Source: Anaerolineales bacterium (lineage in GTDB: Bacteria > Chloroflexota > Anaerolineae > Anaerolineales > UBA11579). Taken from it: DNA of 64,000 bases. The position numbers and the translations under genes are program-made. The stretch covers positions 5,437-69,436 of the forward strand of contig JAFGDK010000009.1 in assembly GCA_016932165.1 (NCBI GenBank), in the 5' to 3' direction. Shown here in pieces: positions 1,236 to 57,315 of this stretch; position 1 is the first letter of the stretch; each line of letters begins with the position of its first letter. Under the pieces are notes generated by a model. It did no database searches, was not told where the DNA came from, and saw only the letters and a program-made list of their open reading frames with translations.

Positions 1236-1865
1236 ATGACCCTAAAATCAGTTTATGATGCAGTTCTGGCGGGGGATGCAGATGGTGCAAAGGAAGAGGT
1301 TCAGGCAGCAATCAATGCCGGACTTTCACCAGAAAAAATCCTGAATGAAGGATTAATTTTAGCTATGTCTGAAGTGGGGCAACTTTTTGAAGCGGGCGAG
1401 TATTTCGTCCCTGAAATGTTGATCGCTGCACGGGCGATGCAAGCCGGGTTGGGTTTACTAAAGCCCCACCTTGCTGCTGAGGATGTGAAGTCTTCTGGCA
1501 AAGTGGTAATCGGTACTGTCAAAGGCGACCTGCACGATATTGGAAAAAACCTGGTGGGAATGATGCTGGAAGGGGCCGGTTTTGAGGTTGTTGATCTAGG
1601 CACAGATGTGGACCCGGCCAAATTCATCGAGGAGGCTAAGAACGGTGCACAGGTGATTGGCATCTCGGCTTTGCTGACCACTACAATGAACAACATGAAA
1701 CAAGTGATTGCAGCTGCTGAGGAGGCGGGAATCCGCGAGGATGTTAAAATCGTGATCGGCGGGGCACCCGTCACCGATGAGTATGCCCAGCAGATCGGGG
1801 CCGACGGCTTTGCTCCGGATGCTTCCTCTGCGGTCCGCCTGGTCCAGCGCCTGGTTGGCGCATAG
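1236..1865 (+). CDS. corrinoid (B12-binding) methyl-carrier protein
   Basis: B12-binding cap helix plus Rossmann domain with the DxHxxG motif (GDLHDIGKN). SD-like AAGGAG lies upstream. Confidence 0.85.
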   Translation: MTLKSVYDAVLAGDADGAKEEVQAAINAGLSPEKILNEGLILAMSEVGQLFEAGEYFVPEMLIAARAMQAGLGLLKPHLAAEDVKSSGKVVIGTVKGDLHDIGKNLVGMMLEGAGFEVVDLGTDVDPAKFIEEAKNGAQVIGISALLTTTMNNMKQVIAAAEEAGIREDVKIVIGGAPVTDEYAQQIGADGFAPDASSAVRLVQRLVGA

Positions 1866-1891
1866 CTGATCTCGATAACACGAGGTGCGAT

Positions 1892-2743
1892 TTGGAAACT
1901 AAAATCAGCTACAAAGATACAGAAGTCGTCATCAGCCCCGGTTCACCCTTCAAGATCATCGGTGAACGCATCAACCCCACCCGGCGCAAGAAACTCGCTG
2001 CCAGCATGGCTGAGGGTGATTTTAGTCTTGTCCAGCAGGATGCCATCATGCAGGTGGAGGCCGGCGCCCACATCCTGGATGTGAATGCCGGGATCCCCGG
2101 TGCAAATGAACCCGCCATCATGAAAGGCGCTTTGCAGGCTGTCCTGGAAGTGGTACAAGTCCCTTTGTGCTTCGACAGCGCAGACCCGGCAGCCTTGAAG
2201 GTTGCTCTGGAGAACTACGAAGGTAAGGCTTTGATCAATTCCACCACAGCCGAAGAGGTGATGATGGGAAAGATTCTGCCACTTGTCAAAGAATACGGCG
2301 CAGCAGTGATTGGTGTGATCACCGATGACAGCGGGATCCCCGCCACCCCGCAGGACCGGCTGGCCACCGCCCGCAAGCTGATCGAGCGGGCCGCTGACTA
2401 CGGCATCCCGGCGGAAGATGTGGTCATCGACGCCCTTGCACTTACTGTGGGCGCCGATCATAACGCCGCACGGGTTACTCTGGATTCGCTCAGGCTGATC
2501 CGCAAGGAACTGGGCGTCAACCTCAACCTGGGAGCCAGCAACGTTTCCTTCGGTCTGCCAGACCGGGCAGTGATCAATACCGCTTATCTCTCTTTGGCGA
2601 TCGCCAATGGGCTGACCACCGCCATCACCGACCCCACCAAAGAGGATATCCAGACCACCTTGCTAGCCTGTGATCTGCTGATGGGCCGCGATGAATATGC
2701 GATGAGGTGGATCAAGGCTTTCCGCAAGCGATCTGCTGAGTAA
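1892..2743 (+). CDS. methyltetrahydrofolate:corrinoid methyltransferase (pterin-binding, MtrH/DHPS-like barrel)
   Basis: Pterin-binding domain features (IGERINPT, NSTT, ...GASNVSFG). TTG start. Lies directly downstream of the corrinoid protein. Confidence 0.8.
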   Translation: METKISYKDTEVVISPGSPFKIIGERINPTRRKKLAASMAEGDFSLVQQDAIMQVEAGAHILDVNAGIPGANEPAIMKGALQAVLEVVQVPLCFDSADPAALKVALENYEGKALINSTTAEEVMMGKILPLVKEYGAAVIGVITDDSGIPATPQDRLATARKLIERAADYGIPAEDVVIDALALTVGADHNAARVTLDSLRLIRKELGVNLNLGASNVSFGLPDRAVINTAYLSLAIANGLTTAITDPTKEDIQTTLLACDLLMGRDEYAMRWIKAFRKRSAE

Positions 2744-7075: not shown

Positions 7076-8038
7076 ATGATGCAATATGTGTTTGGTCCGG
7101 TCCCGTCGCGTCGGCTAGGACAATCTCTTGGGATTGATACGATTCCTTTAAAAACATGCAATTGGAATTGTGTTTACTGTCAATTGGGGCGCACAAAGCC
7201 ACTTTGTAATCAGCGGAAAGATTACATCCCAATCCATGAGATCCTTGCCCAGATTAAAACTGCGCTAAAACGGCATACCGCCGGGGAGATTGATTGGATT
7301 ACCTTTGTGGGGTCTGGTGAGCCAACCTTACATGCTGGGATCGGTTATCTGATCAAAGAGGTTCGATCACTGACGAACATTCCAGTTGCGGTGATTACGA
7401 ATGGGTCGCTGTTGTTCCTCAAGTCTGTGAGAGATGCGCTGCGCCAGGCAGATGCTGTCCTGCCTGGTCTGGATGCGGGAACGCCTGAGCTGTATAAAAA
7501 GCTCAATCGTCCCCATCCAGATATCACCTTTGACCGGTATATTGGCGGGTTGGTTGAGTTCAGGCAAGAGTATCGCGGAAAACTTTGGGTGGAAGTCATG
7601 TTGGTGAAAGATCTCAATGATACTGCTAAAGCTCTGGAGAGGATTGCCTGCCAGATTGAAAAGATCCGCCCTGATAAAATCCATATTGGGTTGCCCACCC
7701 GGCCTCCTGCTGAGAAGTGGGTTTTCCCGCCAACAGAGGAGGGTGTGTTGCGGGCGATTGAGATTTTAGGGAACGTGGCAGAAGTTGCATCACCGTTGGA
7801 GGGAAAGTTTGATATCCGAGAGGCTGACAACATCGTGGACGCAATCCTCGCGATTATCATACGGCATCCGATGAGTGAGGAACAATTATTGGAATCCCTC
7901 GCAGATTTTCCTGAAGAAAAACAGGCTGAAATCCTGGAAAACTTGCAAGCCTCGCCCCATGCACAGGTGATTCAACGATATGGCCGGCGGTTTTGGTGCG
8001 GGGACCTTGCGTTTTTCCCGGATTCAAAAAATCACTAA
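7076..8038 (+). CDS. radical SAM protein, unknown substrate
   Basis: CX3CX2C cluster motif (CNWNCVYC) after the conserved GPVPSRRLG..SLGI N-terminus. Lies 13 nt after usp. Confidence 0.85.
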   Translation: MMQYVFGPVPSRRLGQSLGIDTIPLKTCNWNCVYCQLGRTKPLCNQRKDYIPIHEILAQIKTALKRHTAGEIDWITFVGSGEPTLHAGIGYLIKEVRSLTNIPVAVITNGSLLFLKSVRDALRQADAVLPGLDAGTPELYKKLNRPHPDITFDRYIGGLVEFRQEYRGKLWVEVMLVKDLNDTAKALERIACQIEKIRPDKIHIGLPTRPPAEKWVFPPTEEGVLRAIEILGNVAEVASPLEGKFDIREADNIVDAILAIIIRHPMSEEQLLESLADFPEEKQAEILENLQASPHAQVIQRYGRRFWCGDLAFFPDSKNH

Positions 8039-8062: not shown

Positions 8063-8995
8063 ATGAACATGGAAAAGGATCGTTTGAATCTAGTTGGCAA
8101 AAGAATTGGAATCTTTGGAAAGGGAGGGTCTGGAAAAAGCACGCTGACAGCGTTACTGGCAATGGGGTTGAACCAGCGCGGTTACCATGTATGTGTGCTT
8201 GATGCCGACTCAACTAATGTGGGGCTGCATCAGGCCTTTGGGTTTGACCAATCCCCAACGCCTTTGCTAGATCACTTTGGCGGGGTGGTGTTTAGCGGAG
8301 GTTTGGTGACCTGCCCGGTTGATGACCCCGCGCCCATAGATCATGCGAGCGTGAACATTGACCGCTTGCCTTCAAAATACTACCAGAAAACAGACCACGG
8401 TTTAATTTTTCTCGCCGCGGGAAAGATAGGCGATCAGGGCCCAGGTGCGGGTTGTGATGGGCCGATTGCGAAAATTGCCCGAGACCTTGTCGTCTATTCA
8501 GATCGAGAAGAGTTTGTGAATATAATTGACTTCAAAGCTGGTTTTGAAGATTCTGCGCGGGGGGTGTTGACCAGCCTGGATTGGGTGATCGTAGTGGTTG
8601 ATCCAACAACGGCTGCCGTTGAAATGGCCGTCAATATGAAGGAGATGGTTGAACAAATCAAATCAGATGTGCTGCCAGCCACAGCACATCTGGAAACAGA
8701 GGAGATGGTTTTTTTGGCGAATAAGATATTTACCGAGGCCGCGGTGAGTGAAGTTTTTTGCGTGCTGAATAAGATTCCGAACACAGAAGTTGAAGATTAT
8801 TTGCGAAAAAAGCTTGCACATTACAGAATTGAACCACTAGGCTCGCTCCATCTAGATGAAGCGATCTCGTTGTCCTGGCTAAAGGGCAGGCCGCTTTTTA
8901 GTCCAGAGGCAAATGAGGAAATTAAGAACTTGATCAATAAATTAGAGCAATTTGAGATTGAGAGTGATGTGATAAGAAATTTGAACTCAGAATAA
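8063..8995 (+). CDS. CooC/MinD-superfamily P-loop NTPase (CooC-like metallochaperone candidate)
   Basis: Deviant Walker A GKGGSGKST. The loop GAGCDGPIAK sits where CooC has its CxC metal motif, but only one Cys is present here. A second ATG at 8069 is an alternative start. Confidence 0.6.
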   Translation: MNMEKDRLNLVGKRIGIFGKGGSGKSTLTALLAMGLNQRGYHVCVLDADSTNVGLHQAFGFDQSPTPLLDHFGGVVFSGGLVTCPVDDPAPIDHASVNIDRLPSKYYQKTDHGLIFLAAGKIGDQGPGAGCDGPIAKIARDLVVYSDREEFVNIIDFKAGFEDSARGVLTSLDWVIVVVDPTTAAVEMAVNMKEMVEQIKSDVLPATAHLETEEMVFLANKIFTEAAVSEVFCVLNKIPNTEVEDYLRKKLAHYRIEPLGSLHLDEAISLSWLKGRPLFSPEANEEIKNLINKLEQFEIESDVIRNLNSE

Positions 8996-9198
8996 ACACA
9001 GTTGTGAAAGATCCCACCAGGTAGCTGTTAGATTGCTGGTAGATATTTTATTAACCGAGGATTGTTAGCTAAAAATTCTGTGGGATTTTTGAGGTTTCAA
9101 TTCATATACAATTAAGAGATAATTTGGAGTAACAAAGTGACAGGTCTGAAAACCCGCTTGATTGCTATTCTAACCAATGTTTCTCAAGGAATAGGGAT

Positions 9199-11892
9199 AT
9201 GAATCAATATGAAACAGATGTTGCCCTAAAGGATGGTTCCCTTGTCCACATCCGGCCAGTGGTTACCACAGACCAACAATTGCTTCTTGACTTCATCCAG
9301 AATCTTAGCCCTGAAACTTACCAGCTGCGTTTCCCAAGAACGGTAATCTCCGATAATGCGCTCGGGCAGTTATTGCATGAGGACAATCGGTTTTGTTTGA
9401 TTGCACTTAGGGACGACAGAGTTATCGGGCATGCTTCCTATATGATCAGTGAAGTCAAAAAGGCAGATATCGGTTTGGTTGTGATGGATGAATACCAGGG
9501 AAAGGGTCTGGGAACAATTCTGCTTGGACAACTAATTCAGGCGGCAGCAGAAGAAGGCGTGGAATTGTTTGATACCCTTGTGCCCTCCGAGAATGCGCCG
9601 TTGCTTCGCGTGCTGCGTGGACTGGGGTTTCCCACCGAGCTTAAGATAGCCCAAGGGCTGATCCATGTTATATTCCCGGCATCCAACCTCCCAGAAGCGC
9701 TGGAACGTTTTGAAAAACGCGAAGCGGCATCTGCAGCAGCTGCCATGAAGAAGTTTTTTAATCCGCGCGGCATTGCGGTGATCGGCGCTTCACGAGACCG
9801 GGGCAGCATAAGCGGTGAGTTGTTTCATAATATTCTCGAGGCTGGCTTCCAGGGGCCTGTTTATCCTGTGAATGCCAAAACCGATGTGGTCCAATCTGTT
9901 GCGGCCTACCGCTCTGTTCTGGATTGCCCCGGAAAAGTTGATTTGGCTTTTATTGTTGTGCCAGCCCCCGCGGTACTTGCTGTCGCCAGAGAATGTGCTC
10001 AAAAAGGCGTGTCTGCTCTGGTGGTTATTTCGGCTGGCTTCTCTGAGGCGGGTGAGGCCGGTGTGGCGTTACAAGAAGAATTGGTGAGGATTTGCCGCGA
10101 GGCAGGTATGCGCCTGATCGGGCCGAATTGTATGGGGATCATCAATACGGATCCAGCGGTGAGCCTCAATGGTCAGTTTTCTCCTTTCGCTCCCATCGAG
10201 GGTAAAATTGGGTTCCTCTCCCAGTCAGGCGCGTTGGGGATTGCGGTGATCGAGTATGCCACCCGGTTGGGTCTGGGCATGTCCTCATTCGTCTCAGTGG
10301 GAAACAAAGCGGATATATCAGGTAACGACCTGGTTCAATATTGGGAGAGCGACCCCAATACTGATCTGATCCTGTTGTACCTGGAATCCTTTGGGAACCC
10401 GCGCAAATTTTCCCGGATTGCGCGTCAGGTCAGCCGTAAGAAACCGATCATCGCGGTAAAGGGCGGCCGCGGGGCCGCGGGGTTCCGTGCCACCCAATCC
10501 CATACTGGTGCTCTGGTAGCTTCTTCGGATATCAACGTTGATGCCCTCTTCCGTCAAGCCGGGGTTATTCGGACTGATGTGCTTGCTGAAATGTTTGATG
10601 TGGCTGCGTTCCTGACCACTCAGCCTGTACCAAAGGGGAATCGAGCCGCAATCATTACCAACGCGGGGGGAGCTGGGATTCTGGCAGCTGATGCCTGTGA
10701 AGACCTCGGGCTGCAGGTTCCTGAATTTACACCAGAAACACAGGAAGAACTAAAAACCTACCTGTCCCCAGCCGCAGGGGTGAAGAATCCGGTAGATATG
10801 GTCGCCTCTGCACAAGCGCTTGACTATGCGCGGGTGATCGAAATTGTTGCCCAAGATCCAAATGTGGATGCCTTGATTGTGATTTTCATCCCTCCAATGG
10901 CAGTGAGACCTGAGGAAGTGGCCGCTGAAATTCTCAATACTGCCAAAAAGCTGCAGAACAAAGTCCCGATACTCAGCACCTTTATGGCCAGCCATGGCGC
11001 CCAGGAAATTCTCTCAGATGGGGAGATCAGTATTCCTGCCTATCCTTTCCCCGAAGCAGCTGCCCGGGCTTTATCCAGCGCGGTTCAATATGGTCAATGG
11101 CTGCAAAGGGAGGATTGCTGCTATCCGAAATTCTCTGATATCCGGCAAGAGGATGCCATGGCGATTGTGGCACAATCTCTGAAAGATGGTGAACGCTGGT
11201 TGACCCAGAGGGAGACTGGAATGCTGCTGGATTGTTACGGTATTCCGCTTGTTGAGACTTTGTATGCATCAAGTCCGAAGGAAGCCGGCCTGGCTGCAGA
11301 GAAATTAGGTAGAGCAATTGCACTAAAAGCCACGGGCCCGGGCCTGGTGCATAAAACAGAGATCGGTGCCGTCCGGCTCGCACTGGTCGGGCGGGAAGAA
11401 ACTGAAATCGCGGCTGAAGAGATGTTGTCAGAGGTACAAAGCATGGGGATAACGGGTGTTGAGTTTATCCTCCAGCCTATGGTGTCTTCGGGCATAGAAA
11501 TGATCGTGGGGGTTACCCATGATCCGGTATTTGGACCGATCGTGGTCTGCGGCGCGGGCGGCACGATGGTCGAGCTGCTTAAGGATGTCGCTGTTCGGAT
11601 CACACCATTGACCGATCAGGATGCGGGTGAGATGGTGCGTTCGTTGAAGACCTTCCCGCTGCTGACAGGTTTTCGCGGGGAAGCTCATTATGATGTGGCT
11701 GCACTTGAGGAACTGATTCTTAGAATTAGCACGCTGGTTGAGGATATCCATGAGATCGCTGAATTGGATCTGAACCCGGTGATTGTGCTGCCTGAAGGAA
11801 ATGGCGTATCTTTGGTCGATGCCCGTATCCGCGTGGCAGAAGCGCTGCCTCCGCTTCCTTTTGGCGCAAAAAAACGTTCGTTTGGCAAATAG
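9199..11892 (+). CDS. GNAT N-acetyltransferase fused to ADP-forming acetyl-CoA synthetase (Pat-like, GNAT at N-terminus)
   Basis: N-terminal GNAT (QGKGLGTILL), CoA-binding domain, ligase-CoA domain with QSHTGAL, and a C-terminal ATP-grasp. 897 aa. Confidence 0.85.
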   Translation: MNQYETDVALKDGSLVHIRPVVTTDQQLLLDFIQNLSPETYQLRFPRTVISDNALGQLLHEDNRFCLIALRDDRVIGHASYMISEVKKADIGLVVMDEYQGKGLGTILLGQLIQAAAEEGVELFDTLVPSENAPLLRVLRGLGFPTELKIAQGLIHVIFPASNLPEALERFEKREAASAAAAMKKFFNPRGIAVIGASRDRGSISGELFHNILEAGFQGPVYPVNAKTDVVQSVAAYRSVLDCPGKVDLAFIVVPAPAVLAVARECAQKGVSALVVISAGFSEAGEAGVALQEELVRICREAGMRLIGPNCMGIINTDPAVSLNGQFSPFAPIEGKIGFLSQSGALGIAVIEYATRLGLGMSSFVSVGNKADISGNDLVQYWESDPNTDLILLYLESFGNPRKFSRIARQVSRKKPIIAVKGGRGAAGFRATQSHTGALVASSDINVDALFRQAGVIRTDVLAEMFDVAAFLTTQPVPKGNRAAIITNAGGAGILAADACEDLGLQVPEFTPETQEELKTYLSPAAGVKNPVDMVASAQALDYARVIEIVAQDPNVDALIVIFIPPMAVRPEEVAAEILNTAKKLQNKVPILSTFMASHGAQEILSDGEISIPAYPFPEAAARALSSAVQYGQWLQREDCCYPKFSDIRQEDAMAIVAQSLKDGERWLTQRETGMLLDCYGIPLVETLYASSPKEAGLAAEKLGRAIALKATGPGLVHKTEIGAVRLALVGREETEIAAEEMLSEVQSMGITGVEFILQPMVSSGIEMIVGVTHDPVFGPIVVCGAGGTMVELLKDVAVRITPLTDQDAGEMVRSLKTFPLLTGFRGEAHYDVAALEELILRISTLVEDIHEIAELDLNPVIVLPEGNGVSLVDARIRVAEALPPLPFGAKKRSFGK

Positions 11893-12334: not shown

Positions 12335-12625
12335 ACATACCATCTTTTCCAGCGCAAAAAGAATCTAATCTAGAAAATTCTCTTGAAGGAATGCAACCAG
12401 TAAGTGACCATCGAGGACACATTCTGGCTGATTAAGGTCTCAAGGATGAATCCAGATCAATTTCTTCAGGAACCCGGTTGCAATTGTTTAGACAATTTTC
12501 TTGCTAAATTTGTTTTGTGCTAAAATGTGATTGTTGGATCGGCGGTCGCAGTGGACAATATTGAGTGTACTGCGGCGTGGGATGTAGATCCCGCGAAAAG
12601 TGCCGCTCTATCCTTCCGCCGACCC

Positions 12626-13513
12626 ATGAAAATTTGCCAGAGTTTCCATTATTCAAATAGTATAGATGATGCCCTCGCTGCCATGCGCCAGGCGCGGGGA
12701 GCGTTTGCCGTCCTTGCAGGTGGCACAGACTTGCTGTTGGATATCCAGCAGGGGAGACATCCCGTTGTGGATACCCTGGTGGATGTCAGTAACATCCCGG
12801 AACTGAGCACAATTGAAGTGTATCAGGACCACATCTATCTTGGAGCTGGGGTAACCCACAAACAGATCATCAGCAGCCAATTACTTCTGGAAAACGCCCA
12901 ATGCGTGGTGGAAGGCTGCGGTCTGATCGGAGGCCCCCAGGTACGCAATGTTGCTACGATCGGGGGGAATGTATCCCATGCGCTCCCGGCGGGTGACGGC
13001 ACAATCTCACTGCTGGCGCTCGATACCCAGGTGGAAATCGCCTCCATTGGGGGACGCCGCTGGGAACCGCTATTGGAGATATTCGCCGGACCGGGGAAAG
13101 TGACTTTCGATCGCCAACAAGAACTGGTCACCCGTTTCCGGTTTAACAAGCGCTTGGAACGGGAAGGTTCTACCTTTCACCGGGTGATGAGGCCGCAGGG
13201 GGTCGCCATCGCAATTCTCAACATGTCTGGTTGGGTGAAGCTGGATGACAGCGAACACCTGGCCGACGTGCGCATTGCCTGTGGCCCGGCTGGCCCGAAA
13301 CCATTCAGGGGATTTGAAACAGAATCCTTTCTGAGAGGGAAATGTCTTGATGAAACGATTCTGATGGAAGCTGCCCGGGTTTTGGATGCGGAAGTCAATC
13401 TGCGCACCAGCAAACACAGGGCGACCAAAGACTACCGCCACAGCCTGCTGCCAGTTTTATTGAAACAAGTGCTCCTATTAGCGGTCTCAAGAGCAAAAGA
13501 AAATAGGGAATAG
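12626..13513 (+). CDS. molybdenum hydroxylase FAD-binding (medium) subunit, XdhB/CoxM-like
   Basis: FAD-binding PCMH-type domain (LAGGTDLLLD, ATIGGN). The ATG at 12626 gives a typical N-terminus. The track's GTG at 12527 adds 33 atypical residues. Confidence 0.85.
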   Translation: MKICQSFHYSNSIDDALAAMRQARGAFAVLAGGTDLLLDIQQGRHPVVDTLVDVSNIPELSTIEVYQDHIYLGAGVTHKQIISSQLLLENAQCVVEGCGLIGGPQVRNVATIGGNVSHALPAGDGTISLLALDTQVEIASIGGRRWEPLLEIFAGPGKVTFDRQQELVTRFRFNKRLEREGSTFHRVMRPQGVAIAILNMSGWVKLDDSEHLADVRIACGPAGPKPFRGFETESFLRGKCLDETILMEAARVLDAEVNLRTSKHRATKDYRHSLLPVLLKQVLLLAVSRAKENRE

Positions 13514-13522
13514 GTGCACACG

Positions 13523-16303
13523 ATGACCAAGTTAACCTTTATTGTCAATGGAGAACACAAACAGGTTGAGATTGAACCTGGTGAGATGCTGGCGGAGGTG
13601 CTGCGCAAGCGTCTGGGATTGACGGGTACCAAGATCAGCTGTGATGAACTGGAATGCGGGGTGTGCACTGTGCTGGTTGATGATTTGCCAGTTTTGTCAT
13701 GCAATTATCCAGCAATCAAAGCGAATGGTAAGCATGTCACCACAATCGAGGGGCTGGCATCTGATGGGAACCTGCACCCACTTCAAGAGGCTTTTGTCAA
13801 AAAAGGGGCAACCCAATGCGGTTTTTGCACACCCGGTCAGATCATGACAGCCGCGGCGCTGCTCAAGGAGCATCCAGATCCCACAATTGACGATATTGAA
13901 TACGCCTTGAATGACACCCTTTGCCGATGCGGGGCCTATCCGGCGATTGTGGATGCAATTCGGGCGGCATCTGACAAGATCAACCACGGTACGCCAATTG
14001 AATATCCCCAATATGAGTTTGAGGGCGGTCACAAAGTTATCGGCCAGGTGGTAAAGCGGCCTGAAGCGGTTGACAAAGTGACAGGTGCGGCAATCTATAC
14101 AGATGACATCAGCTTCCCGGATATGTTGATCGGGGCTACCCTGCGGGCCGGGATTCCGCATGGACGGGTAACCAGGCTGGATACCACCGCGGCCGAAAAG
14201 CTGCCCGGTGTGCACGCTGTTCTGACCGCGGCGGATATCCCAGGCCGGGTCAATCATGGTTTGGTGATCCAAGACTGGCCGGCGCTGGTTGGGGTGGGCG
14301 AAAAGGTTCGTTATGTCGGCGATGCCATCGCCATCGTTGCCGCTGATACTGAAGATATCGCCAGGCAGGCGCTTGACCTGATCGAAGTGGAGTTTGAGCA
14401 GCTGCCGGTTGTTACAGACCCGGTGGAGGCCAAACTTGACGGCGCTCCTCTGGTTCATCAGGAAGGCAATTTACTAAAGCATATCAAAGTGGACAAAGGG
14501 GATATTGCCGCTGGATTTGAGCAAGCTGACGTGATCATGGAAGACATCTATACCATGCCCACCTATGAACATGCCTTCATGGAGCCGGAGTGCAGCGTAG
14601 CCCGGGTGACGGAGGATGGCAGAATTGAACTGTGGGTCGGTTCGCAGATCCCTTACGCAGACCGTGAACAGGTGGCGGCTGCTTTGGATTTGCAGCCGCA
14701 AGAGGTGCGGGTGCGCAGCCCATTGACCGGCGGCGGTTTTGGCGGGAAAGAAGATATCGCCGGTCAGATCCACGCGGCCATGCTTGCCAGGTCAACTGGC
14801 AGACCGGTGAAGATTTTGTACAGCCGGCACGAGAGCCTGCTGGTCCATCCAAAACGCCACGCCACCAGAATCAAGGTGACCCTGGGTTTGAAGAAAGACG
14901 GCAGATTGACAGCCGCGCAGACTGAATTGTTTGGTGATACCGGCGCTTATGCTTCCTTGGGCACCAAGGTGATGGGCCGGGCGACAACCCATTCCACTGG
15001 ACCGTATATCGTTCCAAATGTAAAGATTGACTGTTACGCTATGTATACCAATAATCCCCCGGCAGGGGCCTTCCGAGGGTTTGGAGCCTTGCAGGCCTGC
15101 CATGCGATCGAATGCATGATGGATCAAGCCGCAGAGAGGCTGGGGCTGGACCCGGTAGAATTCAGGCGGATGAATGCTTTGCGTGAAAACTCGATCACCA
15201 ACACCGGCCAGCACCTGACTGAGAGCGTGGGCTTACTGGAGTGCATTGATCGGGTTGAAGCTGAGATGTTGCAATCCACTAATGGGGCCGCCCCGTTTGC
15301 TGCCAGAGAAGTGAAGGGACAACCCAATAAACGCCGGGCTTGGGGCTTTGCGGTGGCCTTCAAGAATACCGGGCTGGGTGAAGGCGCGCCCGATAAAGCT
15401 ACCGCTGAAGTTGAATTGTTAGACGGAGGTATTGCTGAGGCGCGGATTTCCTCTGCTGAGATCGGCCAAGGGTTGGTGACTGTGCTGCAAATGATCACCT
15501 CTCAAGAATTGGGCCTGCCCCTAGACCAGGTTCGGGTGCTGCTCTCGGATACAGACCTGACCCCTGACGGCGGACCGACGACTGGCTCCCGGCAGACCTA
15601 TATCTCCGGGAATGCGGTCCGGCATGCGGCCAACTCTCTGCGGGAGCAAATGGCAGCTACACTGGCTGAAAAGTTCGATGTGCCTCCTGATGAAATTAAA
15701 TTTATCGAAGGTCTGGCCCAGGTGAGAGAGGAAATGGTACCGGTTACAGATGTGGTTGCGCTGATGAAGCAGGAGGGGAAAGAGCCAAAGGTTGTGTATG
15801 AATACTGGGCGCCAAAGACCTTCCCGTTGGGTGAAGAGGGAGACAAACACTTTGCCTATTCCTTCGCCGCACAGGCAACCGAGATCGAACTGGACCTGGA
15901 TACCGGGGAGGTGGCAGTGATCCGCACGATTGGGGCCACAGACGTTGGCAAAGTGATCAATCCGCTTGGCTTCCAGGGTCAGGTGGAAGGCGGAACTATC
16001 ATGGGGATCGGCCATGCGCTGACAGAGGAATTCATTATTGAGGATGGCATCATTTTCACAGATTACCTGGCCCGATACCGGATGCCCTCTATTCACCATA
16101 CACCCCGAGAGATCAAGGTGATTGCGGTGGAACACCCGACTAGTGAAGGGCCGTATGGCGGGAAGGGGGTGGGGGAGATCTCAACCATGCCGGTGCCGCC
16201 TTCGATTGTGAATGCCATCTACAACGCCTGCGGAATTCGAATAAAAACTTTGCCGATCGATCAGGATTGGCTTGCATTAGAATTGAGGAAGAAAGCAAAA
16301 TAA
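13523..16303 (+). CDS. molybdenum hydroxylase, fused [2Fe-2S] small subunit and molybdopterin-binding large subunit (xanthine dehydrogenase family)
   Basis: Two 2Fe-2S motifs (CDELECGVCTV; QCGFCTPG...CRCGAY) followed by aldehyde-oxidase/XDH hammerhead and MoCo domains with a GAFRGFG loop. The ATG at 13523 has AGGTG upstream. Confidence 0.9.
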   Translation: MTKLTFIVNGEHKQVEIEPGEMLAEVLRKRLGLTGTKISCDELECGVCTVLVDDLPVLSCNYPAIKANGKHVTTIEGLASDGNLHPLQEAFVKKGATQCGFCTPGQIMTAAALLKEHPDPTIDDIEYALNDTLCRCGAYPAIVDAIRAASDKINHGTPIEYPQYEFEGGHKVIGQVVKRPEAVDKVTGAAIYTDDISFPDMLIGATLRAGIPHGRVTRLDTTAAEKLPGVHAVLTAADIPGRVNHGLVIQDWPALVGVGEKVRYVGDAIAIVAADTEDIARQALDLIEVEFEQLPVVTDPVEAKLDGAPLVHQEGNLLKHIKVDKGDIAAGFEQADVIMEDIYTMPTYEHAFMEPECSVARVTEDGRIELWVGSQIPYADREQVAAALDLQPQEVRVRSPLTGGGFGGKEDIAGQIHAAMLARSTGRPVKILYSRHESLLVHPKRHATRIKVTLGLKKDGRLTAAQTELFGDTGAYASLGTKVMGRATTHSTGPYIVPNVKIDCYAMYTNNPPAGAFRGFGALQACHAIECMMDQAAERLGLDPVEFRRMNALRENSITNTGQHLTESVGLLECIDRVEAEMLQSTNGAAPFAAREVKGQPNKRRAWGFAVAFKNTGLGEGAPDKATAEVELLDGGIAEARISSAEIGQGLVTVLQMITSQELGLPLDQVRVLLSDTDLTPDGGPTTGSRQTYISGNAVRHAANSLREQMAATLAEKFDVPPDEIKFIEGLAQVREEMVPVTDVVALMKQEGKEPKVVYEYWAPKTFPLGEEGDKHFAYSFAAQATEIELDLDTGEVAVIRTIGATDVGKVINPLGFQGQVEGGTIMGIGHALTEEFIIEDGIIFTDYLARYRMPSIHHTPREIKVIAVEHPTSEGPYGGKGVGEISTMPVPPSIVNAIYNACGIRIKTLPIDQDWLALELRKKAK

Positions 16304-40000: not shown

Positions 40001-40485
40001 TAGACCACCTTGTCATCCGTGCCGGCTAGCTGGCGCAGATACTCGGTCTGACCGGCGTGGTAGGTATCGTGCCAGCCGAAGAATTCGATCCGCTGGGCGA
40101 GTGTGGCCGTGTTTGAACCGAGCTTGACATCTCTTTCCAGATCATCGGGGGCCAGGGCTTTGACCGCCTCGACCAACATTGCGGCAGATTTTTCCAGCAT
40201 GGCCAGTAGTTCATCCAGTTGGATCAGTTTGGGGCCATCTTCAAGCACAGGGTCTGCACCGAAGTCGTAGCGCTGGAATTGCTCCTTAGTCAGCAAAGGC
40301 TTGAGGTCGAGCATCTCCATCACTTTCTCACGGTGAACCAGCATGTGACCAAGGATGAAGTTGAGGCAGTTGCCGCGCGGCTCAGGTTGCAGCAGGCTGT
40401 CGGCATGGGTCAGGCCTTTGGTTTGTTCACCAATCACCCATTGGTTGCGGGAAAAAACATTGGCTAATACTTCAGGGTCGTGCAT
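40000..40485 (-). CDS. DinB-family protein (four-helix metal-binding bundle)
   Basis: His triad context (ILGHMLVH ... WHDTYHAGQ). 161 aa. Confidence 0.75.
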   Translation of the reverse strand: MHDPEVLANVFSRNQWVIGEQTKGLTHADSLLQPEPRGNCLNFILGHMLVHREKVMEMLDLKPLLTKEQFQRYDFGADPVLEDGPKLIQLDELLAMLEKSAAMLVEAVKALAPDDLERDVKLGSNTATLAQRIEFFGWHDTYHAGQTEYLRQLAGTDDKVV

Positions 40486-40557
40486 ACTAACCTCGTTGTT
40501 CGTTCGTGGTTTGATCGCCTGATGGTTGGATCGGCTGGACCTATTTTATCAGCAGGA

Positions 40558-41031
40558 TTATTCAGAGGCGGCCATTTCCTTCAAAGTTGTCAAGATTTCT
40601 TCATTCTTGGGGATATCTGCCATGTTGTGACCGTAATGCACAAAGCGGACAATGCCTTGTTTGTCGATCACCGCCATTGCGGGCATGCGTCCCAGTTTGA
40701 AGATGTTGACCTCCTGGCCGTAAAGTTTGAGCACGCTGGATTTGGGATCTGGCAGGCCGGTAAAGGGCAGATCTTGTTCTGTGAAGTACTTTGCAAAAGC
40801 ACATTCATCCTCTGGTCCAACGACAATGATCTCGATCTCCTGTTGGACAAATTTTTGGTAGTCCTGGCGCAACTGCGCCATGTGCGCGCGGCAGAATGGT
40901 CACATGAAGCCGCGGTTGAAGACCAGCAGCACGTTTTTACGGTTTTGATAGCTGCTGAGTGTCACCGGTTGTCCGGTGTAATCCGGCAAGGTGAAATCCG
41001 GTGCAGGTGTGTTGATCGATACTTTTGGCAT
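40558..41031 (-). CDS. peroxiredoxin/redoxin (AhpC/TSA-like) with in-frame TGA at the first redox Cys position (U-P-F-C): probable selenoprotein, alternatively a nonsense pseudogene
   Basis: Hand translation from ATG 41031 (AGGAG 5 nt upstream) gives MPKVSINTPAPDFTLPDYTGQPVTLSSYQNRKNVLLVFNRGFM-[TGA 40902..40900]-PFCRAHMAQLRQDY... This continues in frame into track ORF 40558..40881. The whole matches the redoxin pattern APDF.L.D..G..V.LS.Y....VLLVF.RG.WCPFC... Confidence 0.65.
40865..40880 (-). promoter_or_regulatory. candidate bacterial SECIS hairpin apex
   Basis: The mRNA UGGCGC-AGUU-GCGCCA forms a 6-bp GC-rich stem with GU in the loop, at +23 to +38 from the UGA. An alternative hairpin (CUGC(C)GC...GCGCAG) starts at +9. 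Confidence 0.35.
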
Positions 41032-41103
41032 ATTATCTCCTAAAAAATTCTTGGCCGGATCAATAATTCTGCCGGCATACCCTGGATGTATGTTAATTAA
41101 ATC

Positions 41104-41132
41104 ACAAACGGCCCAGTTTTGGGGCCGTTTGT
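41104..41132. terminator. hairpin terminator between the small hydrophobic gene and the peroxiredoxin-like gene
   Basis: ACAAACGGCCC-loop-GGGCCGTTTGT. The T-run is strong on the plus strand and weak on the minus strand (GATTTAATT). Confidence 0.45.
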
Positions 41133-41162
41133 TTTTCTGAGTGGGTTGGTCAGCCGGATGTG

Positions 41163-41333
41163 TCAGAAGATGGCGATCAGGATGCCGATGGGGAGCAGGA
41201 TCAGGCCGATGATCAGGGCGACGACCACGATCCCAATAATCCCACCCACCAGGCCGAGTACAGCTCCGACAATCCCGACGACCAGACCGATGATCCCGGT
41301 GATCAGCCCGACAATTGCTTTGATTAAGCCCAT
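41163..41333 (-). CDS. 56-aa Gly/Ile/Val-rich hydrophobic mini-protein
   Basis: MGLIKAIVGLITGIIGLVVGIVGAVLGLVGGIIGIVVVALIIGLILLPIGILIAIF. GGAGG lies 6 nt upstream of this ATG. The longer 89-aa track ORF lacks an SD. Confidence 0.5.
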   Translation of the reverse strand: MGLIKAIVGLITGIIGLVVGIVGAVLGLVGGIIGIVVVALIIGLILLPIGILIAIF

Positions 41334-53229: not shown

Positions 53230-54129
53230 TTAGTTGCCTGCCGCCTGATACCGCTCGAAACGCCAGGCTAAAGCATCCCGATCAGGCCAATCAATTTTCC
53301 TGCTGGGGAGAATGATTTTTGAACCGTGAAGTTCCTGAAGGCCGTGTTTTAAAATTGGCCCATCCACTTCTTCTAGGATATCCTCTCTGACTTCAATAAT
53401 GAAATCTGGAGAAACACCGAGGATGAAGTTATCAAAGGCGGCGTGGTGTAGTTTGCATAATGCCATCCCGTTATCCACGGTCGGACGGCTGATTTCCTCT
53501 GTGTCCGGGATGATATGAGAAGCATCAAGAAGCTCGCGGTGTTTGAGCCTACAAAAAGCGCATTGGTCATGATATGCCTGGAGGACTCTGTCCCGGAAAC
53601 TTCTTTGGTGAATTCTCTGCCGAACTGCAGCAGTAATGTAGCCTCGTTTTTGTTCAGCAACTCTGTCGGCTTTTGGTTTCGCACCAATCTCTACGGTATC
53701 CAAATCATCTACTTGAACTCTGAAGGTCAAAGATGATGGATCATCTCCAACAATATAAACAGGCCAGGTGGCTAAGTATTTACTAGGGATTGTACGGAAG
53801 AAGTAAACCAACGGTAATCTCAGACGCAAAACTTCCCGAAGTCCAATATTATCCCGGTGACTCGGATCGGTCCCCCGGTATCGATAAGTAAGCAGGCCTT
53901 TATCATCAAAACCATCATCGTAGGGACTTCCCGGGATGGTTTTGATCGAGAGTGGTAAATCCATCACTTTTGGTTTGAAAATTCCCTGTGGATTTACCAG
54001 CGGAATTCTATGTCCCTCAAATTCAAAGCCTTGCTGTAATAATTCTAGCGGCAATACATCCCCATGGATTTGCGTTTGTTCTGCAAGCCATTTGAAGGCT
54101 GCGAGTCGGATGGCAAGGTCTTTAGTCAT
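53230..54129 (-). CDS. HNH endonuclease (HNH_2-type) with N-terminal putative DNA-reader domain; restriction-endonuclease-like
   Basis: C-terminal CAFC...ASHIIP...NGMALCKLHHAAFD. The N-terminal about 150 aa is conserved-looking (GLLTYRYRGTDPSHRDNIGLR, PLVYFF...WPVYIV). Confidence 0.75.
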   Translation of the reverse strand: MTKDLAIRLAAFKWLAEQTQIHGDVLPLELLQQGFEFEGHRIPLVNPQGIFKPKVMDLPLSIKTIPGSPYDDGFDDKGLLTYRYRGTDPSHRDNIGLREVLRLRLPLVYFFRTIPSKYLATWPVYIVGDDPSSLTFRVQVDDLDTVEIGAKPKADRVAEQKRGYITAAVRQRIHQRSFRDRVLQAYHDQCAFCRLKHRELLDASHIIPDTEEISRPTVDNGMALCKLHHAAFDNFILGVSPDFIIEVREDILEEVDGPILKHGLQELHGSKIILPSRKIDWPDRDALAWRFERYQAAGN

Positions 54130-54143
54130 TGAATGACTTCTGA

Positions 54144-54944
54144 TTACTCGGTTAGTTTAGTCCTTATAACATTATAGGTTTGTTTATTTATTGAGATGAT
54201 AACATTTTCATCTGAAATTTGGTAACTTACCTTGGCATGATGGAGTTTCATGTGGCATGTTGGGCAAACTATTATGATGTTGTCGGAGCAATATGAGCCT
54301 GGATACAATTCATGTAGTTCTCGAACATGATGTGCTTCGATATAACGCTCCCCATTTTTCTTCTTGAATCCATACGATCCGCAAATTTGACAGGTGTAGT
54401 TCATTAATTGCTTCAGATAGTTAGTGATCACTCCTGGCCTAGCAACTTGCTCTGAAATACTATGTCGCCTGTGGGGGACAGTATTACGATATTTTTCGTT
54501 GAAGTATCTAATCTTTTCTTTCAGTTCCTCAATTGGCAAGGATAAATCAGATGAATATTGGGCCTTTGATTCATTTACAGAATTATATAGGTCTTCAGGT
54601 TCAAGATATTGAAAGTTGTTGTGATAATGGGAGACTGGAATTCCTTGACCTGTTCCATGAATTCGTAGAATGTCATTGTGAATTGATCCTACCCATCTGT
54701 TTCCTTTAGGAACCAAGTTTTCATCAGAAAAAATGGCTTTTACTTCACTATAAGGCATTATGTATGAATCTTCTTCATCATTTGAACCTATTAGAATTAA
54801 ACAGAAGGCTTCACCAAAATCTGAAATGTAAGTATTAAGCTTTCGTAGATTGAAGGAAAACCAATAATCGGTTGAGAAATCTGCTTTTCTGACGTAATGA
54901 AACTTTTCAAGTTCTTCTCTATTTTCAACTATGTAATTTCCCAT
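54144..54944 (-). CDS. McrA-like HNH endonuclease with N-terminal domain of unknown function
   Basis: C-terminal CQICG...YIEAHHV...IIVCPTCHMKLHH (HNH/His-Me finger with two CxxC pairs). Strongly AT-rich codon usage. Confidence 0.75.
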   Translation of the reverse strand: MGNYIVENREELEKFHYVRKADFSTDYWFSFNLRKLNTYISDFGEAFCLILIGSNDEEDSYIMPYSEVKAIFSDENLVPKGNRWVGSIHNDILRIHGTGQGIPVSHYHNNFQYLEPEDLYNSVNESKAQYSSDLSLPIEELKEKIRYFNEKYRNTVPHRRHSISEQVARPGVITNYLKQLMNYTCQICGSYGFKKKNGERYIEAHHVRELHELYPGSYCSDNIIIVCPTCHMKLHHAKVSYQISDENVIISINKQTYNVIRTKLTE

Positions 54945-55069
54945 AGAAAAACCCCGATTTCATAAAGAAATAGTTTCCATTACAAGTATTATACAGATGT
55001 TTATTCCTCTCACCCAAAATATTGTATAATCCTTCACACACTCAATCACACACATAGCGAGGTTATCCT

Positions 55070-57220
55070 GTGACAAACCCCAAGATCCTGGCAGAATTCG
55101 AGTATCCCCTCCAACCGGTGGACAAAGGCTATACCAACCGCACGCTGTACATCAACGTAACAGACAATACGATCGCCTCCAAACCCGTCTCGCAAGAGAT
55201 GAAGGATATCTTCATCGGCGGGCGCGGCTTTGGGCTGAAGCTGCTGTGGGAGGCGGTCAGCGGGGAGACCAAATGGGACTCGCCCGAAAACGAGATCGTG
55301 ATCTCCTCCGGCCCGATCGGCGGGATCACCCAATACCCGGGCAGCGGCAAGTCGATTGTTGTCTCGGTCTCCCCGACCACCAACATCGTGGTGGACAGCA
55401 ACGTGGGCGGCTATTACGGGCCGTACCTCAAGTTCGCCGGCTGGGACGCCATCGAGATCCAGGGGATCGCCGACAAAGAGGTGATCATTTACGTGGACGG
55501 CGAGGAAGGCAAGGTCCAGATCGTCGAGGCGGAGACGGATGAGGTCAATACCCATAAGCTGACCGAAATTTTGCTGGAGATGTTCGCCGACCCGCTGAAG
55601 CCCAACCTGGTCAGCACGGTCACCGCCGGCAGCGGGGCAGATAACACCCTGCTGGGCTGTCTCAACGTCAGCTATTACGACCTGCCCCGCAGGCAGCTGA
55701 AGGTCAAGCAGGCCGGGCGCGGCGGGACGGGCACTGTCTTCCGCAAGAAGAACCTCAAGGCGCTGGTGGTCAAGATCCCCAAGATGAGCGGCAAGCTCAA
55801 CAACGCCGCCGACCAGCAGCTGATCAACGAGACCGGCAAACGGATGAATAAAGAGGTCAACGAGAACGACCCGGTGCAGAACAGCATGGCCACCAAGGGC
55901 ACCCCGGTGCTGGTCGAGATCATGGATAAATTCGACCTGCTGCCGACCCACAACTTCAAGTTCGGCGGCCACCCGGAGGCGCACAAGATCGATTCCACCG
56001 TCTGGGAGAGCCTGTTCGACCTCTCGGCGCCGGACGGCTGCTGGTACGGCTGTACCCTGGCCTGCGCCCACGGTTACCAGGATCTGGAGCTGCAAACCGG
56101 CCCCTACCAGGGAGACAAGGTGTTTGTGGATGGGCCGGAATATGAGACTGTCGGCGGGGTGGGCTCCAACCTGGGGATCTTTAACCCGCTGCAGATCCTG
56201 GAGTTGAACTTCTACTGCGATACCTACGGCATCGACGTGATCTCCTATGGCACGCTGACCGCCTTTTTGATGGAGTGCTGGGAGAAAGGGATCCTCAATG
56301 CGGAGCGCACCGGCGGGATTGTACTGGAGTGGGGCAATTTTGAGGCGGCCGCCGAGGTGCTGCACGGGATGGGCGCGGGAGAAGGTTTCGGCAAGACCGC
56401 CGGGCTGGGCATCCGCCGGATGAAGAAGATCTTTGCCGAGGAATACGGCACCGATGCGCAGCTGCTGGAAGATATCGGGATGGAAGCCAAAGGGATGGAA
56501 TATTCTGAGTATATGACCAAGGAATCGCTGGCCATGCAGGGCGGCTACGGCCTGGCCAACAAGGGCGCCCAGCACGATGAGGCCTGGCTGATCTTCATGG
56601 ACCAGGTGCTTAAGCTGATCCCCACCTTTGAGGACAAAGCTGAAGCGCTGCATTACTTCCCGATGTTCCGCACCTGGTTCGGGCTCAACGGCCTGTGCAA
56701 GCTGCCCTGGAACGATGTGGAGCCGACCGACAACCGCACCAGGTACAGCGGCATTGAAGCTGCCAAAGTGCCGGAACACGTGCAGAACTACGTCAATCTG
56801 TTCGTGGGGGTGACCGGGCGTACGGATGTGAAGCGCGGCGAGGACCTGATCGAGATGTCGGAAGCGGTCTACAACTTCCAGCGGGTCTTCAACGTGCGCA
56901 TGGGCTACGGCGACCGGGATCACGACCGCATCCCCTACCGCTCGGTTGGCCCGGTCACGGTGGAAGAATATGAGTCCCGCCAGGAGCGCTACGACACCCA
57001 GCTCAAAGAGCTGCTGGATTACGACCCGCAGGGCAGGACCACCGAGGAGAAGATGGCCGTGCTGCGCCAGTACCGTGAGGATCAGTACCAAAAGCTGTGC
57101 GATGCGGTCTACAAGCGGCGTGGTTGGACGGAGAACGGCATCCCCACCGTGGAGACGCTCAAACGCCTGAGGATCGACTTCCCCGATGTGGTCGAGGTGG
57201 TCGAGAAGGCGATCAATTAG
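55070..57220 (+). CDS. aldehyde:ferredoxin oxidoreductase family (tungstopterin enzyme)
   Basis: AOR N-terminal domain (YTNRTLYINV...IGGRGFGLKLLWE) and Cys-rich cluster region (GCWYGCTLAC). 716 aa, GTG start with GAGG upstream. Confidence 0.9.
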   Translation: MTNPKILAEFEYPLQPVDKGYTNRTLYINVTDNTIASKPVSQEMKDIFIGGRGFGLKLLWEAVSGETKWDSPENEIVISSGPIGGITQYPGSGKSIVVSVSPTTNIVVDSNVGGYYGPYLKFAGWDAIEIQGIADKEVIIYVDGEEGKVQIVEAETDEVNTHKLTEILLEMFADPLKPNLVSTVTAGSGADNTLLGCLNVSYYDLPRRQLKVKQAGRGGTGTVFRKKNLKALVVKIPKMSGKLNNAADQQLINETGKRMNKEVNENDPVQNSMATKGTPVLVEIMDKFDLLPTHNFKFGGHPEAHKIDSTVWESLFDLSAPDGCWYGCTLACAHGYQDLELQTGPYQGDKVFVDGPEYETVGGVGSNLGIFNPLQILELNFYCDTYGIDVISYGTLTAFLMECWEKGILNAERTGGIVLEWGNFEAAAEVLHGMGAGEGFGKTAGLGIRRMKKIFAEEYGTDAQLLEDIGMEAKGMEYSEYMTKESLAMQGGYGLANKGAQHDEAWLIFMDQVLKLIPTFEDKAEALHYFPMFRTWFGLNGLCKLPWNDVEPTDNRTRYSGIEAAKVPEHVQNYVNLFVGVTGRTDVKRGEDLIEMSEAVYNFQRVFNVRMGYGDRDHDRIPYRSVGPVTVEEYESRQERYDTQLKELLDYDPQGRTTEEKMAVLRQYREDQYQKLCDAVYKRRGWTENGIPTVETLKRLRIDFPDVVEVVEKAIN

Positions 57221-57237
57221 CCCGGTCCGAAACTTGA

Positions 57238-57260
57238 GGAGCGGCGCCGGCCGCTCCTTT
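57238..57260 (+). terminator. rho-independent terminator after the AOR gene
   Basis: GGAGCGGC-GCCG-GCCGCTCC followed by TTT. Confidence 0.55.
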
Positions 57261-57315
57261 GGCATGTTTAGAGCTTATTTGGAGATTTCCATTGCGCACC
57301 CGCAGACCTGATATC

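Follow-up and report, generated by a model that had tools for sequence, protein, structure and literature searches.

A peroxiredoxin-like gene with an in-frame UGA and a candidate SECIS hairpin in an Anaerolineales bacterium: a probable member of the Prx-like 1 selenoprotein family

Introduction

Peroxiredoxin (Prx)-like proteins with selenocysteine (Sec) in a UxxC motif have been described as a selenoprotein family (PMC1088965, PMC2398784, PMC1794560, PMC13188914), defined by a thioredoxin-like UxxC instead of the TxxC or TxxU of true Prx (PMC1088965, PMC13188914). In the GOS data, it is listed as "Prx-like 1, pfam00578, UxxC," with 225 Sec and 2,740 Cys sequences (PMC2398784, Table 2); in Geobacter, Syntrophus, and Desulfotalea, it has been called a "Prx-like thiol:disulfide oxidoreductase" (PMC1794560). 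A 2026 review gives PF00578 and UxxC or UxxU as its features, with WP_010940744.1 of Geobacter sulfurreducens as the example (PMC13188914). Here we consider a gene at 40558..41031 (minus strand) of a 64,000-nucleotide stretch from an Anaerolineales bacterium (GenBank assembly GCA_016932165.1, contig JAFGDK010000009.1, positions 5,437 to 69,436), called the window throughout. An earlier reading of this DNA, made without database searches (the sequence-only reading), had proposed that a TGA within the gene encodes Sec and that the gene is not broken. Our analysis bears this out, through conservation of the TGA, a coding signature on both of its sides, Cys in the same column of homologues, and a hairpin constrained specifically in the Sec forms. 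We consider it very probable that this is an intact, UGA-recoded selenoprotein gene.

How does the gene compare with Prx-like 1? Like the "Prx-like protein" of the Sargasso Sea, it has an AhpC/TSA domain, Cys homologues with CxxC, and a candidate bacterial selenocysteine insertion sequence (bSECIS) directly downstream of the UGA; both are found in anaerobes, including Syntrophaceae and other Deltaproteobacteria. More specifically, we found a PF00578 domain, the motif U44-P-F-C47, a column in which Cys and Sec exchange, and 158 further TGA-bearing sequences. Loci from Syntrophaceae, Smithella, and other Deltaproteobacteria (L054, L075, L079, and L082) are 62 to 67% identical to the window protein. 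From domain, motif, and taxon overlap, we infer orthology with the published members, so that the gene would add one member to a selenoprotein family that was defined computationally and has been known from published work since 2004-2005. The clade around it differs from Prx-like 1 as published in being mainly from Anaerolineae and other Chloroflexota, in its near-invariant hairpin, and in the ratio of forms, 159 TGA to 2 TGC in the scanned loci versus 225 Sec to 2,740 Cys overall in GOS.

Results

The gene lies in a single frame, from an ATG at 41031..41029 to a TAA at 40560..40558 (minus strand), with 157 sense codons if the Sec codon is counted. Reading of the region 40400..41200 (minus), with 41031..40558 translated, gave MPKVSINTPAPDFTLPDYTGQPVTLSSYQNRKNVLLVFNRGFM*PFCRAHMAQLRQDY..., in which the sole internal stop is the TGA of codon 44 (40902..40900). 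Around it, the joined product reads ...VFNRGFM-U-PFCRAHMAQL.... An AGGAG Shine-Dalgarno sequence (41041..41037, minus) is found 5 nucleotides (nt) before the ATG. In 75 homologous sequences, the first start codon is 43 codons ahead of the TGA, the modal value. Direct reading thus confirmed what the sequence-only reading had said of the TGA, the ATG, the AGGAG, and a joined product of 157 amino acids (aa). It had also noted that the mechanical list of open reading frames (ORFs) held a 107-aa ORF (40558..40881, minus) cut off from the upstream part; this is so, and the list holds a 43-aa ORF (40900..41031, minus) in the same frame as well.

When U is read as C, the Pfam domain AhpC-TSA (PF00578) matches across the TGA, covering residues 6-130 with an E value of 1.2e-24 and 87 bits (cutoff, 26); Redoxin also matches across it. 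The TGA (40900..40902) stands for the first residue of the redox motif U-P-F-C. The second, Cys47 (40891..40893, minus), is encoded by TGC here and by TGC or TGT in 159 of 159 sequences; it is invariant in the family alignments and is presumed to be the partner of Sec44 in a selenenylsulfide. Arg115 (CGC, 40687..40689, minus) is also family invariant, as is the segment G114-R115-x-P117 in which it stands.

One competing explanation is a pseudogene: the source organism would have lost a Cys-type Prx-like gene to a nonsense mutation that turned TGC or TGT into TGA. The stop does interrupt the gene, the window shows no Sec machinery, and the public annotation consists of two fragments, all as expected of a lesion. 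The related loci speak otherwise. We scanned one genome per species, which gave 80 loci, and a metagenome collection, using a search seeded with a Cys-only alignment and peptide patterns that exclude the hairpin region; this returned a further 80 loci, 2 of them unparsable. TGA was present at the codon in 80/80 of the species-level loci and in 76 of the 78 parsable metagenome loci, the other 2 having TGC. In all, the comparison of orthologues that the sequence-only reading had suggested found TGA in 159 and TGC in 2 of 161 parsed loci. The 159 TGA sequences, with the window gene included, come from about 150 distinct organisms in several phyla; 152 are unique, with a median pairwise aa identity of 0.66 and a minimum of 0.42. 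A lesion would not persist to 42% aa identity, and the divergence of the relatives excludes artefactual copies of a single sequence.

The sequences on either side of the TGA are also those of a working gene. Entropy at codon positions 1/2/3 amounts to 0.94/0.67/1.55 in the 36 codons before the TGA and to 0.70/0.47/1.49 downstream; given this common pattern, both sides evolve as coding sequence in one frame, under purifying selection. Additional disruptions in relatives, named in the sequence-only reading as a sign of decay, were looked for and not found. No homologue has a further stop or frameshift, and the 43 codons of the N-terminal part are in frame with the rest of the gene in 159/159. 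Where the TGA is replaced, the replacement is informative: Cys stands in this very column, in the motifs CPFC, CPHC, or CVFC, in nine Cys-type database proteins and in eight loci of the Cys form. We regard a pseudogene as extremely improbable. The recurrence of both the TGA and the hairpin in 159 related sequences is far beyond chance.

The protein databases give a more confusing picture of the codon. Full-length matches of about 155 aa were 55 to 66% identical to the joined product, versus 70 to 80% for matches of about 105 to 110 aa that cover only the C-terminal two-thirds. Half of the top 120 database proteins (60) are cut short immediately past the codon; the others have W (48), C (9), R (2), or L (1) in the Sec column. 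U is present in none of these 120 entries, and a full-length form with X at the codon was not found in the protein collection searched. The W forms, together with G in one representative (P0208), could be taken to mean that these organisms use TGA as a sense codon, for Trp (code 4) or Gly (code 25). TGA still serves as a stop, however: of 46 genes in the window, 8 end with it, as do 68 of the 159 Prx-like genes compared. Each of these 159 has a single internal TGA, in every case in the Cys-aligned column. The W forms are best explained by the alternative translation tables that gene callers use on short metagenome contigs, and the single G form may have the same cause. For instance, the 795-bp contig (L001) behind one W form has TGA in its DNA, and translation under code 11 does not yield the database protein (P0001); in a 4.4-Mb genome (L002), the gene is likewise split around the TGA, into 43 and 106 aa. 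A reassigned code therefore has next to no credibility for us.

A few database entries have other residues in the Sec column: R in P0042 and P0078 and L in P0002. P0002 has the same local sequence as a genome locus (L010) in which the codon is TGA, so at least this entry is a translation artefact. The two R forms could be genuine changes from TGA to CGA.

For the hairpin, the bSECIS consensus provides a yardstick: a loop of 3-9 nt with G in the first two loop positions, then G or U; an upper stem of 4-16 bp; 16-37 nt from the UGA to the loop; and a minimum free energy (MFE) of no more than -7.5 kcal/mol (PMC13188914). The putative bSECIS core, UGGCGC-AGUU-GCGCCA (40865..40880, minus; loop, 40874..40871), occupies nt 23-38 when counting starts at the U of the UGA, which is 20-35 nt beyond the codon, and it overlaps M51-A-Q-L-R-Q56. 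All the consensus features are present, with a 4-nt AGUU loop, a 6-bp stem, a spacing of 25 nt, and an MFE of -10.8 kcal/mol. For the 16-nt hairpin alone, this energy corresponds to a z of -3.1 and was matched by 1 of 200 shuffles; the 66-nt stretch that follows the UGA is, as a whole, not unusually stable (z = -0.6 versus shuffles). The MFE was at or below -7.5 kcal/mol in 144 of 149 unique homologous segments. The sequence-only reading had described a GC-rich hairpin at a position compatible with a bSECIS, a description upheld by the consensus, by the isolated fold, and by the Sec-specific synonymous constraint considered below.

The bSECISearch model, with Escherichia coli fdhF as the prototype, and the hairpin have much in common: an in-frame hairpin just past the UGA with adequate stability, a small apical loop with G and then U, and a spacing within 16-37 nt. 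In contrast to the fdhF SECIS, the hairpin here is without a bulged U or a convincing lower stem, its sequence is unrelated, and it has no Rfam model. RNAalifold kept only the central 4 bp; candidate distal pairs were all in protein-constrained columns, and none was convincing. A second copy of the hairpin was sought in the 64-kb window, and none was found.

Among the 149 unique segments, AGUU is the loop in 148, and stem pairs 4-6 are invariant. Pair 1 is U-A in 127, U-G in 21, and C-G, a double change, in 1; pair 2 is G-C in 145 and G-G in 4; pair 3 is G-C in 120 and G-U in 29. Because the peptide under the stem is conserved in Cys forms too, the synonymous sites are the informative test. 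In the Sec forms, Ala is GCG in 159/159, Gln is CAG in 158/159, Leu is TTG in 159/159, and Arg is CGC or CGT in 159/159. Elsewhere in the same genes, GCG makes up 22.5% of Ala codons, TTG makes up 19% of Leu codons, CAG makes up 64% of Gln codons, and CGY makes up 50% of Arg codons. Flanking synonymous sites are saturated, with Pro using all four codons and His using CAC 106 times versus CAT 52 times. In Cys-form loci, the hairpin codons are changed in 5 of 8 (GCA; TTA with CGG; CTC..CGC CTG; TTA; and CGA). Exact 15-mers are found in about 157/159 Sec forms versus 3/8 Cys forms (Fisher p ~1e-6, uncorrected for phylogeny). This pattern points to a constraint at the level of RNA that is tied to the TGA, which is what a SECIS predicts.

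Three Cys forms (L122, L165, and L168) keep hairpin codons 7-11 as ATG GCG CAG TTG CGC. These are probably recent Sec-to-Cys conversions with a "fossil" SECIS; L168 has lost the outer U-A pair through a change of Gln56 to Glu. Separately, the third position of codon +5 after the UGA (40885-40887) is G in about 94% of sequences (CGG, GCG, AAG, or AGG; entropy, 0.31), while the amino acid varies. This G, 15 nt after the UGA, may be an additional RNA-level constraint; a pairing partner for it was looked for, and none was established.

The first codon under the hairpin is itself an AUG, and one can envision two products made with no recoding at all, a 43-aa peptide ended at the UGA and a 107-aa protein begun at M51. 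The AUG of codon 51 is conserved in 157/159, gene callers use it as a start, and re-initiation modulated by the hairpin is possible in principle. Against this, beta-strands 1-3 and the whole UxxC/CxxC centre would, according to the structural model, be missing from the 107-aa fragment, making folding or activity unlikely. Met51 is kept in Cys forms, where re-initiation is unneeded, and codon 51 has no Shine-Dalgarno sequence before it. The frame shared in all 159 sequences also argues for one product, and the coincidence of TGA and Cys in one column would be left unexplained. We find this alternative very unlikely.

Another possibility accepts that the UGA is read but does not invoke a SECIS: a near-cognate tRNA (Trp or Cys) would suppress the UGA, with the hairpin slowing the ribosome or the access of release factor. 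Stop-codon read-through stimulated by a downstream structure is known in other systems, and this general precedent counts in favor of such an explanation, as does the fact that Sec machinery is so far shown only in the literature on the lineage. It would not account for a UGA placed exactly on the redox-active Cys column; a Sec/Cys column signature is the criterion used for every known selenoprotein family (PMC13188914). The hairpin, moreover, fits the SelB-type consensus, with G and then U in a small loop and a 25-nt spacing, and the family has already been catalogued in the Sec-decoding Geobacter, Syntrophus, and Desulfotalea. SECIS-independent read-through thus seems to us improbable to about the same degree as two separate products, and UGA recoding to Sec is the reading that we retain.

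Once the Sec codon is accepted, the active site can be placed among redox families. By sequence, the best solved relative is Mycobacterium tuberculosis AhpE (E = 1e-10), and the alignment sets FNRGFM-U-PF-C-R over FFPLAF-T-GI-C-Q. Sec44 is therefore aligned with the Thr of the Prx motif PxxxTxxC, Cys47 is aligned with the peroxidatic Cys, and the motif Pro is replaced by Arg41. Arg115 falls within one residue of the catalytic Arg116 of AhpE, beside an alignment gap, and is plausibly equivalent to it. The sequence-only reading was right in placing the TGA at the redox Cys of a CxxC motif, in that it encodes the first residue of UxxC, which is Cys in homologues; it is not the peroxidatic residue and aligns with the Prx Thr. 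The motif F.RG.WCP.C, given there as the AhpC/TSA consensus, is not a canonical AhpC/TSA motif.

An AlphaFold model of a Cys homologue (P0017; pLDDT, 89.8) shows a thioredoxin fold in which a helix at 45-56 follows immediately on the first Cys. Its Foldseek neighbours are Bcp1 (3drn) and Bcp4 (3hjp), with TM scores of 0.83; AhpE (1xxu), with 0.82; and ResA, with 0.70-0.74. ResA has the highest sequence identity among the structural matches, 28-30%. All NCBIfam matches of the protein are below the family cutoffs. The best is NF040769, SelL-related redox protein, with 85.4 bits versus a cutoff of 120 (E = 3.4e-24; residues 9-105, model positions 2-99 of 173), followed by ResA (NF002854, 47.9 bits versus 170), BCP (NF006960, 43.8 bits versus 140), and PrxU (NF040737, 22 bits versus 270).

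PrxU of Eubacterium acidaminophilum (PxxxTxxU) resembles the window protein in its AhpC/TSA fold, in having Sec in the active-site segment, and in its UGA with a downstream bSECIS. Its Sec is peroxidatic, however, at the position of Cys47, whereas in the window protein Sec precedes that position by three residues and Arg stands in place of the motif Pro. We considered a strict Sec-peroxiredoxin and rejected it, given the alignment of Sec with the Thr instead of the peroxidatic Cys, the change of Pro to Arg, and the 22-bit match to the PrxU model. SelL shares the Prx-like fold and has its redox motif at the same place, but with UxxU instead of UxxC, and the match is limited to the N-terminal 99 of 173 model positions. 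With ResA and TlpA, the protein shares a CxxC-type centre at the N terminus of helix alpha-1 and a thioredoxin fold with a Prx-like insertion; those proteins are membrane anchored and extracytoplasmic, whereas the protein here starts with beta-strand 1, without an anchor by eye, and its overall scaffold is nearer BCP and AhpE (TM scores of 0.82-0.83 versus 0.70-0.74). BCP/PrxQ and AhpE are the closest structural scaffold, and the Cys at the peroxidatic position and the nearby invariant Arg are kept; it is the catalytic Pro and Thr of PxxxTxxC that are replaced, by Arg and Sec. Taken together, the alignments indicate an enzyme with a Prx scaffold and a thioredoxin-like UxxC centre, a predicted thiol:disulfide oxidoreductase. 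It is probably cytoplasmic, because in the translation, read by eye, the N terminus starts directly with the fold, with no signal or anchor.

Discussion

We imagine that expression of the gene would proceed as follows. Translation would start at the AUG at 41031, with AGGAG 5 nt upstream. As the ribosome comes to codon 44, the UGA, the hairpin located 20-35 nt farther on, with its G+C-rich 6-bp stem and an AGUU loop presenting G and then U, would recruit SelB-GTP-Sec-tRNA(Sec), and Sec would be inserted without termination. The ribosome would then melt the hairpin and read M51-A-Q-L-R55, part of helix alpha-1. The predicted product is a 157-residue cytoplasmic protein of thioredoxin fold on a BCP/AhpE-like Prx scaffold, in which the Pro...Thr...Cys triad of Prx has become Arg41...Sec44...Cys47, giving a thioredoxin/ResA-like U-x-x-C at the N terminus of helix alpha-1. 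The Sec44 selenolate would be the likely nucleophile, attacking a disulfide, a sulfenic acid, or a peroxide; resolution may occur as a Sec44-Cys47 selenenylsulfide, to be re-reduced by a thioredoxin-type reductant. The involvement of SelB and tRNA-Sec, the chemistry, and the substrate are all inferred.

Several points weigh against our conclusion. Three of the eight Cys forms keep an intact hairpin, and part of the nucleotide conservation stems from the peptide HMAQLRQD, which the Cys forms conserve also. The Cys control set is small (8 loci), and the hairpin statistics are uncorrected for phylogeny. Classical covariation is minimal, with one compensatory event, because the stem is almost invariant. 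Rfam scans of the hairpin, at gathering and at permissive thresholds, returned neither SECIS nor any other family. Neither Pfam nor NCBIfam identified selA, selB, or selD among the approximately 55 window ORFs, and ARAGORN found no tRNA-Sec in the 64-kb window or in 60 related loci. None of the four genes is present in the 5.4 kb past the left end of the window or in the flanks of the 60 related loci. That the source organism decodes Sec is therefore an assumption. The family itself is so far predicted only, graded "predicted with high confidence" in the 2026 review (PMC13188914), and oxidoreductase and peroxidase chemistry are both only candidates.

Published work documents the trait in the lineage. 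SelB and Sec-containing formate dehydrogenases are known from single-cell genomes of Anaerolineales, and SelB is also encoded by A. thermophila (PMC4959059); Chloroflexota metagenome-assembled genomes (MAGs) have up to 46-49 selenoproteins (PMC13326102), and Sec-containing hydrogenases are found in Chloroflexota (PMC13582414). A scan of the window for other TGA-interrupted selenoprotein genes gave only out-of-frame noise besides the Prx-like gene. Elsewhere in the window, an XdhB-like FAD subunit (12527-13513, plus) is followed by a fused Fe-S/molybdopterin subunit (13514-16303, plus), for which the best NCBIfam match is TIGR03311, "selenium-dependent xanthine dehydrogenase," at 748.6 bits, below the cutoff of 830. 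This xanthine-dehydrogenase-like pair may hint at a second selenium trait, of the cofactor type, which would also need SelD.

Is the Anaerolineae-centred clade more than another set of Prx-like 1 members? One can envision a distinct, almost obligately Sec-dependent subfamily. Its 16-nt SECIS would have been frozen by overlap with a protein-constrained helix (HMAQLR), and it would have spread over at least five phyla: Chloroflexota, Desulfobacterota, Actinomycetota, Acidobacteriota, and Calditrichota. Such a subfamily could carry out an uncharacterised reaction through Sec at the Thr position, Cys at the peroxidatic position, and Arg, for example as a selenenylsulfide-based peroxidase or a repair reductase. 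If this were true, the clade might explain why there are SelB-encoding Anaerolineae with no annotated selenoprotein, as reported for A. thermophila (PMC4959059). We hold this extended proposal to be rather unlikely and see in the gene, more simply, a further Prx-like 1 member. The scientific addition is in that sense small, UxxC Prx-like selenoproteins having been catalogued since 2004-2005.

The sequence-only reading had also expected standard gene callers to misannotate such a gene, and this they do. In every database entry examined, the gene is cut in two or has a wrong residue (W, L, R, or G) at the codon. Even in a cultured type strain, Longilinea arvoryzae KOME-1 (L080), it is deposited as two coding sequences, GAP15702.1 (43 aa; also deposited as WP_269084967.1, "hypothetical protein") and GAP15703.1 (111 aa, "peroxiredoxin"). 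An exhaustive profile search gave 43 representatives at 50% identity with E values of 1e-30 or less and 2,773 with 1e-10 or less; the best 150 representatives include 12 Cys forms, 5 W forms, and at least 52 proteins with a start immediately past the TGA. The clade thus appears to be large, Sec dominated, and systematically misannotated. The loci are mostly from Anaerolineae and other Chloroflexota, with some on contigs binned as Deltaproteobacteria/Syntrophaceae, Actinomycetota/Thermoleophilia, Acidobacteriota, or Calditrichaceae, although MAG binning of short contigs is uncertain. Five database proteins of 843-1,717 aa (P0133, P0152, P0185, P0205, and P0261) have 4-6 tandem stretches that match the Prx-like profile.

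The surroundings of the gene are not conserved and therefore give no functional clue. Its window neighbours (DinB_2, YCII, DUF1801, MetRS, and DUF4153) recur in none of the 161 loci. A terminator-like 11-bp hairpin (41104..41132, minus), detected in a consensus scan only, lies between the upstream gene or genes and the Prx-like gene, which suggests that the latter starts its own transcription unit. In three to four loci, a glutathione-peroxidase-family gene and a TetR regulator are directly upstream (L002, at 8647-9982; L023; L052; and, for TetR, L018); this pair is not found upstream of the window gene.

Elsewhere in the window, at 1236-2743 (plus), an MtgC-like corrinoid protein of the glycine-betaine/methylamine type is beside a methyltetrahydrofolate:corrinoid methyltransferase, and a URO-D/MtaA-like gene (L170, 90-1250) is just past the left end of the window; the set resembles a module for methyl-group demethylation of the kind typical of anaerobes. 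A tungsten-type aldehyde:ferredoxin oxidoreductase (AFOR_N, AFOR_C) is encoded at 55070-57220 (plus). The antisense 739-aa ORF at 55046-57265 (minus) has no family match, and we discarded it as an ORF artefact. The ORF at 7076-8038 has a weak likeness to a W-cofactor radical-SAM maturase. Finally, at 53230-54944 (minus), a phosphorothioated-DNA-binding restriction endonuclease-like gene (NF045808, E = 1e-18, below cutoff) adjoins an HNH-domain gene, and the two could be a small defence island.

What the gene and its relatives offer is, first, a correction. The selenoproteomes of Anaerolineae and related anaerobes are under-counted, and the hairpin ATGGCGCAGTTGCGY beside TGA-CCN-TWY-TGY provides a simple, highly specific signature for re-annotation. 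Second, the culturable L. arvoryzae offers a way to test a predicted family by experiment for the first time. Third, the clade is a natural experiment, in which an RNA signal lies over a protein-constrained segment and is relaxed after conversion of Sec to Cys.

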